Source of the DNA: a virus
Length of the DNA stretch: 64,000 nucleotides
IMG/VR virus record: IMGVR_UViG_3300037307_000181
Coordinates: 2,523-66,522 of that record
Reading direction: 5' to 3' (one strand)
The position numbers were made by a program, and so were the translations under genes. Shown here one piece after another: positions 56,230 through 62,761 of the stretch. How positions within the stretch are numbered: the first letter of the stretch is position 1; each line of letters opens with the position of its first letter. The notes under the pieces were generated by a model. That model did no database searches, had not been told where the DNA came from, and saw only the letters and a list, made by a program, of their open reading frames with translations.

Positions 56230-56302
56230 TGGGGATTAGGACAATCGGTTAGTCCACTGGTCTTTGAAACCAGACGTGAAGGTTCGAACCCTCCATCCCC
56301 AG
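56230..56302 (+). tRNA. tRNA-Gln(TTG)
   Basis: Loop CTTTGAA; cloverleaf. Confidence 0.88.
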
Positions 56303-56316
56303 TTTGAAATTGACCA

Positions 56317-56346
56317 TTGACAAATAAAGCATTTCTATGCTATAAT
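56317..56346 (+). promoter_or_regulatory. sigma70-type promoter
   Basis: TTGACA-18-TATAAT with TGn. Confidence 0.8.
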
Positions 56347-56365
56347 AATAGAGTAAGTTAAACGT

Positions 56366-56502
56366 GCCACCATTGTCTAATAGGAAGGACATTACTTCCA
56401 GAGGCAAAGATGCTGACCACATCTGACCGGTTAAATCGTCTGGTCAACAAGCTTCTGGTTTGTACAGGAGGTAAGACGGAGGTTTGAGTCCTCTTGGTGG
56501 CT
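56366..56502 (+). ncRNA. tRNA-scaffold RNA A with a 73-nt domain replacing the anticodon loop
   Basis: Acceptor GCCACCA/TGGTGGC, D arm, T arm GGAGG-TTTGAGT-CCTCT. Confidence 0.75.
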
Positions 56503-56519
56503 GCTAATTTGTAAGTTGC

Positions 56520-56590
56520 GGGGGTTTAGTTCAATGGGAGAACGCTTCTCTTGCACAGAAAAAATATCAGTTCGATTCTGATAACCTCCA
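56520..56590 (+). tRNA. tRNA-Ala(TGC)
   Basis: Loop CTTGCAC. Confidence 0.82.
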
Positions 56591-56603
56591 CCTAGTTTGC
56601 GCA

Positions 56604-56633
56604 GTTGCATTTTGCTCCACAAAACGATTGTAG
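56604..56633 (+). promoter_or_regulatory. putative late promoter motif
   Basis: GTTGCATT-N13-CGATTGTAG. Confidence 0.65.
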
Positions 56634-56660
56634 TATTTAGATCATATTGTGGAGGATTTT

Positions 56661-57227
56661 ATGGGTAAACATAAGAGTGGTCAAGCAAAAGTAAATGTTG
56701 TGTGTGAAACATGTGGTGTAACATTTCAAAAAAGAATTGCTGAGAAGACACGAACAAAGCACAACTATTGCTCCAGGATGTGTGTTCCAAAACACGGAAA
56801 GAAAAGAGACCCTGAAAATTATGTTGAGTTGGTATGCTCAGGTTGTGGAAAAAGTTTCATCAGAAGAAAGACATACCTATCACGCAGCAAGAGTGGGTTT
56901 TATTTCTGCTCAAGGAAATGCAAAGATGATGCACAAAGAATAGGCAGTGGTTTTGAAATCATGCTGCCAGAGCACTATGGAATAATGCAAGAAAAGTATA
57001 GGGATAAAGCATTAGCACACTACCCTAATCGTTGTGAATTATGTGGATGGGATGAGCACGTAGTATGCCTGGATGTTCATCACATAGACGAAGATAGAGA
57101 CAACAACAGCATAGACAATCTTGTAATCTTGTGCTGTAACTGTCACCAATACTTACATAGAACTGGAAAAAAGTATTCACGAATACCCTTGACAATAAGT
57201 AATAATGATGCTATAATAATAGGGTAA
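56661..57227 (+). mobile_element. HNH homing endonuclease with Zn-finger repeats
   Basis: CETCG..YCS..CSGCG..FCSRKC..LDVHHIDEDRDNNSIDNLVILCCNCH. Confidence 0.85.
57189..57217 (+). promoter_or_regulatory. sigma70-type promoter for the RNA island
   Basis: TTGACA-17-TATAAT with TGn. Confidence 0.8.
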
Positions 57228-57261
57228 GAAGTAAACAGAACTTTAATAACTTCATAAATTC

Positions 57262-57320
57262 CACCTCAACGTGAGTGCCTAGCACGAAAGGCGTACATTC
57301 AGTTCGAGTCTGATGGGGTG
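57262..57320 (+). ncRNA. minimal D-armless tRNA-like element
   Basis: CACCTCA/TGGGGTG, GCCT/AGGC arm, T-loop TTCGAGT. Confidence 0.5.
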
Positions 57321-57329
57321 AATTAACAA

Positions 57330-58175
57330 AGCTGGCAGGGGTTGTTGCAGACCCAGGCTGTGAGCTAATAACCACAGCCTAATGCCAGTGGAGTAAGGAG
57401 CTTCTGGTCTCTTAGATAAACCCAGTAATGGGATAAAGGATTGGTGTCTACGCTGATCCGCATCGCAAGATGTCAACCAGGTGAACTGCTCGACACACTC
57501 TACCGACTGCTAATGGCGTATGCTGAGGCAAGGGATGGGGTGTCCACTGAAAAGGTGGTGAGGCTGAGAGGTCAATACATGAGGGCAGGGAGCACAGCAG
57601 TAGTTCTTGGCGGGACTAGCCTGTGTGAAGTTCCAGGCAACTACCAGTGATGGGGTTGTCGGAGGAATGTAGATGAGTAGGGTCGCCAGCCTGAAACATC
57701 AACGGTAGGGTGTGGTCAAGGTCAGTATAAAGGCTGATACAACCGGACAGGGTACATCCTGCGTCAAGTAGAAAACCTGGGTTCAACTCCCAAATGATAA
57801 GACTATATATTATACATGGATAACCACGAACCCCTGTCGGTAGAGCCTACGATAGATCGCTCTTGTCCTGGTCACAGGAACGGTGTTGCGGAAACAACAC
57901 TGATGTGCTAACGGTCTCAGGTGATACTTCGTCTAGCTAACGGGGTAGCTCAGGGGAAACGGGTGCAGACAAGTAGGCGGCGCAAGCCTCAAAACAACCT
58001 CAGATGTGTGGCAGACGCATCAAGAAGGAACTCAAAAGACTGAAAGCAACTAGGTCATAGAGACTGCGAGTGAAGCTGTACGCTGCTGGTGGAAACATCA
58101 GTGGGGCTAAACCTGGGACTGTGATGAGTAGCCTGGGTTACGGTGCAGCGATATGAGGATGGCTACAACTCGTAA
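57330..58175 (+). ncRNA. candidate large (~850 nt) structured ncRNA
   Basis: No credible ORF; dense hairpins with GNRA loops and a T-loop motif; lies between a promoter and tRNA-Trp. Confidence 0.7.
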
Positions 58176-58184
58176 CAATTTCAT

Positions 58185-58257
58185 AGGGTGATGGTGTCAA
58201 CGGATAGCATCATTGTCTCCAAAACAAAAGGTCTAGGTTCGAATCCTAGTCGCCCTG
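58185..58257 (+). tRNA. tRNA-Trp(CCA)
   Basis: Loop CTCCAAA. Confidence 0.88.
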
Positions 58258-58273
58258 CTAGTAAGTCAAACGT

Positions 58274-58410
58274 GCCCCCCTCTTCTAATTGCAAGATGCT
58301 CAAGATACTACTGACTGGCGATCAACGGTTTACTCGCCAGGATCATCTGATCCATGATCGTAACGGGAGCAAGTCTTGAGAGAATGCCAGTGTAACCCTG
58401 GCGGGAGGCA
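58274..58410 (+). ncRNA. tRNA-scaffold RNA B with a 72-nt domain replacing the anticodon loop
   Basis: GCCCCCC/GGGAGGC-A, D-like arm, CTCAA/TTGAG stem, AGAAT variable region, GCCAG-TGTAACC-CTGGC. Confidence 0.7.
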
Positions 58411-58425
58411 GGACAATCTAATTAT

Positions 58426-58496
58426 GAGCACATGGCATATCGGATGTGCAGCGGCCTTTTAAGCCGCAGAGGTGGGTTCAACTCCTACTGTGCTCA
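58426..58496 (+). tRNA. tRNA-Lys(TTT)
   Basis: Loop CTTTTAA. Confidence 0.88.
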
Positions 58497-58499
58497 CCT

Positions 58500-58631
58500 T
58501 TCACACTCTCTTTATCCTGACCTCAACTGGTACTGTTCTCAACTGTTATAACACAGCCACGAACAGATTAAGCCCAGGGACACGTTTCTACTTGAGGATA
58601 GAGTGGCGGCTGCTGAAGGCAGCGGTGTGAA
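58500..58631 (+). ncRNA. candidate branched rod RNA
   Basis: TTCACAC/GTGTGAA closure with nested stems. Confidence 0.5.
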
Positions 58632-58702
58632 CTACTGTCTCAGAAAGGCTAACGATTGCCCACGATGAGGTATCGGGTCAGAAGTGGGGCAGTAGATTTT
58701 AT

Positions 58703-58775
58703 TCCTGGGTAGCCCAATGGCAGAGGCAGATGGCTGTTAACCATCTCAGTGGAGGTTCAACCCCTTCTCCAGGAG
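58703..58775 (+). tRNA. tRNA-Asn(GTT)
   Basis: Loop CTGTTAA. Confidence 0.88.
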
Positions 58776-61643: not shown

Positions 61644-61653
61644 TGACAATCAT

Positions 61654-61726
61654 GCCTCTGTAGCTCAGTTGGTAGAAGCGCAGGTCTGAAGAACCTGATG
61701 CGTGGGTTCGATCCCCACTGGAGGCA
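61654..61726 (+). tRNA. tRNA-Phe(GAA)
   Basis: Loop CTGAAGA. Confidence 0.88.
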
Positions 61727-61778
61727 CTGAGCTATCACCCATACACCAGACCTAGGTTAGGTGCTAGTGATAGCGGTA

Positions 61779-61855
61779 AGAGACAAGGTAGACGTACCTA
61801 AATGGATAAAGTCCTGGGAAACGGGACGAAGTGGGATCGTGCCCCACTGTCTCTA
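61779..61855 (+). ncRNA. anticodon-less tRNA mimic
   Basis: AGAGACA/TGTCTCT, extra hairpin, GTCCTG-GGAAA-CGGGAC, T-like arm GTGGG-ATCGTGC-CCCAC. Confidence 0.6.
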
Positions 61856-61864
61856 TATAAACAT

Positions 61865-61947
61865 GGCGGTAATGAGTACACGGTGAGACTCGGCTGTCTG
61901 TAAAACAGTTCCCATTGGGTAGGTAAGTTCGACTCCTACTACCGCCA
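61865..61947 (+). tRNA. tRNA-Tyr(GTA)
   Basis: Loop CTGTAAA, variable arm. Confidence 0.85.
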
Positions 61948-62053
61948 CTAGGAGAAAAATAAAATGGATAGAGACCCTAGATACAGAGGATTATGGTGTA
62001 ATTGTTCTTGTTCTGGCTGTCTGTTGCCTTGATACTTGCAGTAATAATCTTAT

Positions 62054-62124
62054 GACCTAGATGCCAAACGGTCAGGCAGCGGTCTGCAAAACCGCCAAAG
62101 TGGGTTCAACCCCCACCTGGGTCT
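62054..62124 (+). tRNA. tRNA-Cys(GCA)
   Basis: Loop CTGCAAA. Confidence 0.88.
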
Positions 62125-62128
62125 CTAT

Positions 62129-62208
62129 GGGTGTGTAATCGGACTTGTTTCCTAAACAAGTAACCGTAAATGGAATTGAAAATGTGGGTTCAATCCCCAC
62201 CACGCCCT
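62129..62208 (+). tRNA. D-armless tRNA-like RNA, Arg(CCT)
   Basis: GGGTGTG/CACGCCC, short linker, loop TTCCTAA, long variable region, canonical T arm. Confidence 0.7.
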
Positions 62209-62213
62209 CTCAT

Positions 62214-62288
62214 ACTCCGATAACTCAGTCCGGTTAGAGTGCCGTTCTGATACAGCGGATGTCTGTGGTTCAAATCCACATCGGAGTA
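62214..62288 (+). tRNA. tRNA-Ile(GAT)
   Basis: Loop CTGATAC. Confidence 0.88.
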
Positions 62289-62293
62289 CCTAT

Positions 62294-62368
62294 GCTCTCT
62301 TAGCTCAGTTGGTTACGAGCACTTCTCCTACAAAGAAGGGGTCGGTGGTTCAAATCCACCAGGGAGCA
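62294..62368 (+). tRNA. tRNA-Val(TAC), C33
   Basis: Loop CCTACAA. Confidence 0.85.
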
Positions 62369-62373
62369 CTTAT

Positions 62374-62446
62374 GGATACGTCGCCAAGTGGTCAAGGCAA
62401 CATTCTCATAAAATGTCCATCAGTGGTTCAATCCCACCCGTATCCA
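62374..62446 (+). tRNA. tRNA-CAT (Met or Ile2)
   Basis: Loop CTCATAA. Confidence 0.85.
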
Positions 62447-62455
62447 CCTATAGAC

Positions 62456-62484
62456 TTGACAATAAGGAATACCTGTGCTATAAT
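62456..62484 (+). promoter_or_regulatory. sigma70-type promoter
   Basis: TTGACA-17-TATAAT with TGn. Confidence 0.8.
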
Positions 62485-62500
62485 TAATACATATAAGTAA

Positions 62501-62583
62501 GTGCTCATGGTGGAATGTGGCATACACGCCTACCTTAAGAGTAGGTGCAGAAATGCATGCAGGTTCAAGCCCTGCTGAGCACA
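62501..62583 (+). tRNA. tRNA-Leu(TAA)
   Basis: Loop CTTAAGA, variable arm. Confidence 0.88.
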
Positions 62584-62587
62584 CAAC

Positions 62588-62668
62588 GGGCTGGTGGTGG
62601 AACGGCAGACACGAACGCATCAAGAGCGTTTGCCGAAAGGCATACAGGTTCGAGTCCTGTGCAGCCCA
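62588..62668 (+). tRNA. tRNA-Leu(CAA)
   Basis: Loop ATCAAGA, variable arm. Confidence 0.85.
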
Positions 62669-62681
62669 CAGAAACAAACAT

Positions 62682-62761
62682 GCACCTGTGCTGGAACTGG
62701 CATACAGGCTTGTCTTAGAAACAAGTGCGAAAGCATGGAGGTTCGACTCCTCTCAGGTGCA
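62682..62761 (+). tRNA. tRNA-Leu(TAG)
   Basis: Loop CTTAGAA, variable arm. Confidence 0.88.

Follow-up and report, generated by a model that had tools for sequence, protein, structure and literature searches.

RNase P RNA is regarded as a housekeeping ribozyme of cells. In the bacterial molecule, a GGU in loop L15 pairs with the tRNA 3′ end, and the P7–P14 region reads the T and D loops. Phage tRNA clusters can also contain stable RNAs that are not tRNAs, such as the species 1 and 2 RNAs of T4, and tRNAs lacking a D arm are found in mitochondria, e.g., metazoan tRNA-Ser(AGY). The DNA analysed here (the window) is a sequence of 64,000 nt from an uncultured phage, corresponding to positions 2,523 to 66,522 of IMG/VR record IMGVR_UViG_3300037307_000181, and it carries a tRNA island (nt 56229–62762) in which a 206 nt RNA gene (nt 59825–60030, + strand) directly follows tRNA-Val. 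Homologues and covariation identify this gene as a type-A-like RNase P RNA cut down to its catalytic domain (hereafter, the mini RNase P RNA). We hold, with moderate confidence, that the island is the phage's own tRNA-supply module and that the embedded mini RNase P RNA would add processing capacity to it.

RNase P RNAs of reduced size have been described previously. The type T RNA of Pyrobaculum and relatives (RF02357) is about 200 nt long and has lost most of the specificity domain (PMC13462272). Engineered bacterial RNAs consisting of the catalytic domain only can cleave pre-tRNA with or without protein, at lower affinity and efficiency (PMC5839562; PMC11143913). Among phages, GOLLD and ROOL RNAs are known to adjoin tRNA genes (PMC12286853). 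The mini RNase P RNA has in common with type A RNase P RNA (E. coli M1 RNA, rnpB; RF00010) the helices P1–P6 and P15–P17, both pseudoknots, the AGGAA of J3/4, the ACAGAA before the 3′ strand of P4, an A-rich J5/15 and the GGU of L15, but it is about 200 nt long rather than about 370, has lost P7–P14 and P18, and its gene sits inside phage tRNA arrays. Type T RNA is likewise naturally about 200 nt in length; however, it belongs to archaea, where its protein partners are archaeal too, and since the phage RNA has a bacterial-type P6, P15–P17 and L15 GGU, its reduction is independent of type T. The engineered RNAs represent the same half of the molecule but are laboratory constructs, whereas the phage RNA is a natural, conserved gene.

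The window is part of a 92,167 bp record, rated complete by CheckV, in which terminase, portal and major head protein genes are present, and a near-identical Logan contig exists for the window DNA. Related phages were gathered by terminase searches. The two closest complete relatives are G001 (terminase 59% identical) and G002, and a further related phage, G008, has a genome of 75 kb (terminase 50% identical).

Structure and Homologues of the Mini RNase P RNA

In a permissive Rfam scan, the archaeal RNase P model (RF00373) matches nt 59825–60028 along its whole length apart from a deletion of the specificity domain (37.5 bits, E 5e-8), a score below the gathering threshold of 84; neither RF00010 nor the type T model (RF02357) matches the window copy at E ≤ 10. 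Read by hand, nt 59825–60030 form helices P1, P2, P3, P5, P15, P16 and P17, and two pseudoknots that are not encoded as pairs in the Rfam model, P4 (8 bp, one bulge) and P6 (UAGC/GCUA, which joins the strand 3′ of P5 to the loop of P17), can also form. A 31 nt stub (nt 59891–59921) stands in place of the missing specificity domain, P7–P14, and P18 is missing as well, with just 12 nt between P15 and P2. The window copy has AGGAA in J3/4, GCAA in J5/15, GGU in L15 (nt 59971–59973) and ACAGAA (nt 60003–60008) before the 3′ strand of P4. An initial annotation, made from the letters of the window alone, had noted orphan structured RNAs among the tRNAs of the island. The structured RNA at nt 59825–60030 is an RNase P RNA, and the most informative element of the island was overlooked there. 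Being the one element that could be identified, it points to tRNA maturation, i.e., to support of translation.

Nine homologues were found, one in G008 and eight on metagenome contigs. The G008 homologue lies immediately after tRNA-Ser and matches RF00010 at 66 bits (E 1e-18). It is longer through an AT-rich insert in the stub, which is not a specificity domain. This insert of about 140 nt has a GGAGG and an ATG opening a frame of 67 codons with a C-x-H...CxxC pattern, and the frame continues into the P15–P17 part of the ribozyme (L050:1560-1765). A motif common to the window and G008 copies gave 14 matches on metagenome contigs, eight of which are true homologues (190–230 nt), and a covariance model for which the window copy was the sole input recovered all ten sequences at 55–276 bits and nothing else in the window. 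The search by that motif in 185,579 species genomes gave three pattern matches, none of which fits the model, so that by this motif no copy of the sub-family was found in cells. Full-text literature searches turned up no publication on an RNase P RNA encoded by a phage, which does not prove that none exists.

The ten sequences (window, G008 and eight metagenome contigs) were aligned to examine covariation, giving 56 pairs and 544 cells. The bases pair in 96% of the cells and both sides change in 41 of the 56 pairs; this level of pairing was reached by none of 500 shuffles, and slid partners pair at 35–40%. P4 and P6 were left out of the search model and so provide an independent test of the structure: all of their 120 cells are paired, 27 of them with double changes. 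P4 is paired in 100% of cells, with compensatory changes in five of its eight pairs, and P6 in 40 of 40, where the UAGC/GCUA of the window is represented by CUGC/GCAG, UUGC/GCAA or CCGC/GCGG in others. P15 is 90% paired across the ten sequences. The AGGAA and ACAGAA motifs, the GGU of L15 (G147, G148, T149) and an A in J5/15 (A107) are invariant.

Seven of the ten copies start 0–10 nt after a tRNA, the layout expected of release by tRNA processing, and six of these seven are found in arrays of 16–29 tRNAs. The next tRNA begins 2–5 nt after P1 in two of the seven. We infer the viral origin of the ribozyme-bearing metagenome contigs from their tRNA arrays only; a PHROG scan of the open reading frames (ORFs) on these contigs was uninformative. 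A tmRNA is also present in two of these arrays; G008 and contig L062 have tmRNAs in their arrays.

The tRNA Array, Its Promoters and Protein Genes

The initial annotation had recognised a tRNA island with 28 canonical tRNAs on one strand. The island is real, and ARAGORN predicts 29 tRNAs, all on the + strand, between nt 56229 and 62762. In a whole-window Rfam scan, 27 of the 29 pass the gathering score of RF00005 (29 bits); tRNA-Leu(CAA) is added at 39.5 bits by an Rfam E-value scan, and the sole Rfam match to tRNA-Tyr is the tRNA-Sec model (27 bits). With a tRNA-Ser(UGA) variant and two D-arm-less Arg tRNA-likes, the total comes to 32 tRNA-type genes, and all twenty amino acids are covered once a second cluster near 40 kb (three further tRNAs and a tmRNA by ARAGORN) is counted in. 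None of the island tRNAs encodes a full CCA; about ten encode N73-CC followed by T (U in RNA). N-1 is T (U) in nearly every island tRNA, and the spacing between many neighbouring tRNAs is merely 3–5 nt.

The two D-arm-less tRNA-likes are Arg(UCU) (nt 60701–60776, + strand; RF00005 31.1 bits), in which a 7 nt linker takes the place of the D arm and the variable region is 20 nt long, and Arg(CCU) (nt 62129–62208, + strand; RF00005 34.9 bits). G001 carries homologues of both. In all four sequences, the acceptor stem has 7/7 pairs formed by differing sequences (compensatory changes), both the anticodon arm and the T arm are intact, a linker of 7–8 nt stands in for the D arm, and the variable region of 20–23 nt contains a shared motif, CGUAA..GGA..UGAAAAU. 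Mitochondrial tRNA-Ser(AGY) has the same set of acceptor, anticodon and T arms with a short linker for the D arm, but the elements described here are phage genes with Arg anticodons (UCU/CCU) and a variable region of 20–23 nt that bears a conserved motif. Anticodons UCU and CCU are borne by normal tRNAs in G008. As judged from their sequences, the D-arm-less Arg tRNA-likes are functional genes.

Three consensus sigma-70 promoters on the same strand had been noted initially, and all three were recovered in our scan, each with a 12/12 match to TTGACA/TATAAT and a TG extension. Promoter P1 (nt 56317–56346, + strand) has an 18 nt spacer; promoter P2 (nt 57189–57217, + strand) lies within the 3′ end of an ORF encoding an HNH endonuclease and is a paralogue of promoter P3 (nt 62456–62484, + strand). 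That scan gave no terminator-like site on the + strand. Promoters P2 and P3 show 78% identity over 45 nt (nt 57173–57217 and 62440–62484). The upstream part of promoter P3 consists of the tRNA-Met 3′ end, of which a degenerate copy is kept at promoter P2 inside the HNH ORF, pointing to duplication of a tRNA-plus-promoter unit.

The order of the tRNA genes, all on the + strand, is as follows. The island begins with tRNA-Gln(UUG) (nt 56229–56303; Rfam 51.9 bits), which is followed by tRNA-Ala(UGC) (nt 56520–56592), tRNA-Trp (nt 58185–58258), and a group comprising Lys(UUU), Asn, Asp, Glu(UUC) and Glu(CUC) (nt 58426–59174), all predicted by both ARAGORN and Rfam. The tRNA-Ser(UGA) variant (nt 59489–59575), missed by ARAGORN and matched by RF01852 at 30.9 bits, can be aligned to both a homologue from G001 and the canonical tRNA-Ser(UGA) of G008. 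The discriminator base of tRNA-Val(GAC) (nt 59751–59824; ARAGORN, Rfam) abuts helix P1 of the mini RNase P RNA. Further along are a tight run with 3–5 nt spacers predicted by ARAGORN, consisting of Ser(GCU), Gln(CUG), Arg(UCG), Arg(ACG) and Gly(UCC) (nt 60297–60696), and a group containing Lys(CUU), Gly(GCC), three Thr tRNAs, a Phe-like gene and Phe(GAA) (nt 60972–61727; ARAGORN, Rfam). These are followed by tRNA-Tyr, a possible 22-codon Cys-rich ORF (nt 61964–62032) seen by sequence reading, and tRNA-Cys(GCA) (together nt 61865–62125; tRNAs by ARAGORN), then by tRNA-Ile(GAU), a gene called Cys(ACA) by ARAGORN, and tRNA-Met (nt 62214–62448; ARAGORN, Rfam). Three tRNA-Leu genes (UAA, CAA and UAG; nt 62501–62762; ARAGORN, Rfam) form the end of the island.

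Two of these genes are atypical. The Phe-like gene, called Phe(AAA) by ARAGORN (nt 61570–61644), has a broken anticodon stem (two mismatches, or a 6 nt loop) and the lowest Rfam score (41 bits), and it adjoins the normal Phe(GAA). The gene called Cys(ACA) (nt 62294–62369) can form a perfect 5 bp anticodon stem that gives the loop CCUACAA, and is better read as Val(UAC), in which C occupies position 33 where U is usual. Unusual anticodons were also encountered elsewhere: ARAGORN assigns a four-base anticodon (tctg) to one tRNA of G008 (L053:191-265) and a two-base anticodon to one tRNA of G002 (L014:4454-4525), and a ribozyme-bearing array contains a tRNA whose anticodon, UUA, would read the stop codon UAA (L055:3163-3235, − strand). 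A further tRNA (68.4 bits) is found outside the window in the same record, on the opposite strand and distant from both clusters (G000:C1:78011-78082, − strand). The phage tmRNA (nt 39665–39967, 66.5 bits) has a long tag of 26 residues that ends in VSAY rather than the usual AA.

The island had been presented as consisting of RNA genes only, which does not hold, as it also contains an HNH endonuclease gene and several small ORFs preceded by strong ribosome-binding sites. The HNH homing-endonuclease gene (nt 56661–57227, + strand) encodes 188 aa (Pfam HNH 27.1 bits; PHROG 1271, E 1e-24). The small ORFs among the tRNAs include five (nt 59241–59486, 59598–59786, 60036–60206, 60792–60965 and 61964–62032) that are basic, rich in Cys and provided with strong ribosome-binding sites; two of the five have a C-x-C-N-C motif in common, and none gave a Pfam or PHROG family match. 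The ORF at nt 59241–59486 (+ strand, 81 aa) is preceded by a GGAGG. That at nt 60036–60206 (+ strand, 56 aa) specifies a CxxC...CxxC zinc ribbon and has a GGAG ribosome-binding site in the 3′ strand of helix P1, and that at nt 60792–60965 (+ strand) encodes 57 aa from an ATG after AGGAGG, with a Cys-rich N-terminus. These three are also called on the near-identical Logan contig, and the arrays of G008 and of contig L063 contain similar small CxxC ORFs. The zinc-ribbon ORF was considered as a possible protein cofactor of the ribozyme and rejected, as most homologues are flanked directly by tRNAs without such an ORF. A weak SRP-like match (nt 60037–60131, 18.8 bits) falls inside the same ORF and was also set aside.

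By megablast and blastn, the island matches GenBank phages at tRNAs only. A DUF6876 protein gene just beyond the island (nt 62778–63164) was tried as a synteny anchor and rejected, its homologues being found in unrelated contexts without tRNA arrays. Elsewhere in the genome, the tmRNA, RlaP and phosphatase genes listed in the initial annotation were confirmed, the phosphatase being of the DSP type; MazG and a metallophosphoesterase were not found among the ORFs scanned, in a scan that was not exhaustive. A match to EGFOA RNA (RF02955) lies directly downstream of the large terminase gene (nt 26195–26307, − strand; 42.9 bits, gathering score 37.7).

Orphan Elements, Processing and Alternative Explanations

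Besides the tRNAs and the mini RNase P RNA, the island contains several candidate RNA elements. They resemble the T4 species 1 and 2 RNAs and the GOLLD and ROOL RNAs in that they would be non-tRNA RNAs sharing transcripts with phage tRNAs and freed when these are processed, and in the presence of large ORF-free regions beside tRNAs, but differ in that scaffolds A and B match the tRNA model only and that no homologues were found. Scaffold A (nt 56352–56502, + strand) starts with a 14 nt leader common to scaffold B and continues as a 137 nt tRNA frame (nt 56366–56502; RF00005 32 bits over 137 nt), in which the anticodon loop is replaced by a two-hairpin insert of about 73 nt. Scaffold B (nt 58260–58410, + strand), recognised from its fold and its likeness to A, has after the leader a tRNA-like frame (nt 58274–58410) with a two-hairpin insert, a non-canonical T loop and one acceptor-stem mismatch. 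The two are paralogous, with frames of 137 nt each and 5′ parts (36 nt) that are 81% identical. A pattern for the scaffold leader gave zero matches in IMG/VR, and the AGTAAGT leader motif shows no enrichment in the window as a whole.

Fold strength was expressed as an energy z-score relative to shuffled sequences. This was −3.6 for scaffold A (nt 56366–56502), −2.5 for scaffold B (nt 58274–58410), −4.0 for a cloverleaf-like mimic without an anticodon loop (nt 61779–61855, + strand) and −5.6 for a perfect hairpin of 95 nt between tRNAs (nt 59007–59101, + strand). A structured spacer of 204 nt (nt 58499–58702, + strand) gave −2.7; other spacers gave about −0.3 to −0.9, and several fold no better than shuffles. 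A minimal tRNA-like element (nt 57259–57327, + strand), recognised by sequence reading from a 7 bp acceptor-like stem (CACCUCA/UGGGGUG) and two hairpins, one T-arm-like and one small, folds weakly (z-score −0.8), and no homologue of it was found.

Adjacent to this element is a G+A-rich, ORF-free region (nt 57328–58184, + strand) that is a candidate large RNA or string of RNAs. Its GC content is 50%, compared to 43% for the genome, and there is a T-arm-like hairpin near nt 57775–57795. Over the slightly larger interval of about 950 nt (nt 57228–58184), all six frames contain 8 to 25 stop codons each, and the z-score of −1.7 is modestly better than that of shuffles. Folding with a limited pair span gave no clear tRNA-like cassettes. 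No credible Rfam match was obtained for nt 57200–58200 at E ≤ 10 (the best was RF01074, 19.5 bits, E 0.91), and group I or II introns, GOLLD (RF01998), ROOL (RF03087), OLE and YrlA were all discarded as identities of the region, there being no match to any of them at E ≤ 10. Homologues of the region were found neither by BLAST against five relatives nor by two IMG/VR scans with 18–19 nt patterns.

If the island is a tRNA-supply module, then host RNA polymerase would start at the three sigma-70 promoters, producing long rightward transcripts that cover about 32 tRNA-type genes as units. RNase P would cut the 5′ end of each tRNA and be the main endonuclease separating densely packed neighbours, a 3′ endonuclease or exonuclease would trim after each discriminator base and, since no gene encodes CCA, a CCA-adding enzyme would be needed to complete the tRNA 3′ ends. 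The same cuts would free the material lying between tRNAs, including the 206 nt RNase P RNA and the orphan elements. The 5′ end of the ribozyme would be produced by 3′ processing of the upstream tRNA, and its 3′ end by the RNase P cut at the tRNA that follows; copies with an ORF behind them, such as that of the window, would depend on other nucleases. Once released, a catalytically active mini RNase P RNA would pair with host RnpA and add RNase P capacity for phage precursors, the host protein being the likely partner because the phage encodes no RnpA (PF00825 was not found in four phage genomes of this group). The earlier proposal of a single co-oriented system punctuated by tRNAs is supported in the case of the ribozyme, which shares its borders with tRNAs, and is reasonable for the other elements. 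The orphan elements would be released like the ribozyme, and retention by selection would be claimed for none of them.

Several observations weigh against the tRNA-supply reading. No copy of the ten reaches an Rfam gathering score (relatives, 28–66 bits). The ribozyme was not found in G001 and G002, the closest complete relatives, or in a further 31 IMG/VR records related by terminase, which are mostly fragments, and its absence from G001 and G002 shows that it is dispensable, an accessory of patchy distribution; one of these two, which has the D-arm-less Arg genes, still has 24 tRNAs by ARAGORN (26 tRNA-model matches). Lastly, the P4 bulge (nt 59872) is A in the window copy and U in the other nine, a departure from type A that is seen in the window copy only, and the 5′ strand of P4 holds no U there, so that no alternative register restores a bulged U. 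In bacterial RNase P, the bulged U (U69 in E. coli) binds a catalytic metal ion (PMC11143913), and its replacement by A may leave the window copy weakened or inactive. That the copy is catalytically dead, and either decaying or acting by another route such as titration of host RnpA, is nonetheless unlikely in our view, as every helix and all other invariant positions are intact and decay would give scattered damage.

Scaffolds A and B, the mimic, the long hairpin and the approximately 950 nt RNA pose a further difficulty, as no homologue of any of them was found in the collections searched (the two complete relatives, other tRNA arrays that were fetched, GenBank phages and IMG/VR pattern scans). 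Inter-tRNA material consisting of unconserved spacers is a description that fails for the ribozyme and for the D-arm-less Arg tRNA-likes, since both are conserved, with homologues and compensatory changes. Everything else between the tRNAs might be debris, i.e., decayed tRNA copies, scars left by homing endonucleases and folding spacers derived from tRNAs, an explanation we consider doubtful while giving it some weight. It agrees with the missing homologues, with the large gaps of the G001 array being ORFs of 278 and 364 aa rather than RNA, with the several spacers that fold like shuffles and the z-score of only −1.7 for the approximately 950 nt region, and with the local duplication and rearrangement evident in promoters P2 and P3 and their tRNA-Met 3′ remnant; it sits poorly with scaffolds A and B, which retain intact 7 bp acceptor stems and equal lengths despite their divergence, with the mimic and the hairpin, which fold far beyond shuffles, and with a perfect promoter (P2) dedicated to the approximately 950 nt region. 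The missing homologues also argue against the scaffolds, mimic and other RNAs being decoys or repair substrates that counter host anticodon nucleases after maturation by tRNA punctuation, as do the lack of any link between these elements and a nuclease and the fact that the sole element identified is a processing ribozyme and not a decoy. Decoys therefore seem very improbable, even though the paralogous scaffolds keep their leader, acceptor stem and D arm, each shows a side hairpin with a 7 nt anticodon-like loop (CUGACCA and CUGAUCC), and RlaP, a phosphatase and a tmRNA are encoded in the genome. Also improbable, if a little less so, is a self-contained maturation module in which loss of the elbow-reading domain lets the ribozyme process the D-arm-less Arg tRNAs, scaffolds A and B and the minimal tRNA-like element; ribozyme and substrates would then be cut from the same transcripts, and the A in place of U would be tolerated or adaptive.

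Implications

For annotation it matters that members of the mini RNase P family fall short of the Rfam thresholds and escape standard pipelines, and that gene callers put spurious ORFs over regions of this kind. The tight tRNA runs, the D-arm-less tRNAs and the tRNA-framed scaffolds are candidate substrates available in cis. As a natural, minimised RNase P RNA of a phage, the element represents a natural experiment on the least RNA that is sufficient, and on whether or not the bulged U is indispensable. With it, the translation functions carried by phages, such as tRNAs and tmRNA, would extend to the processing of tRNA.

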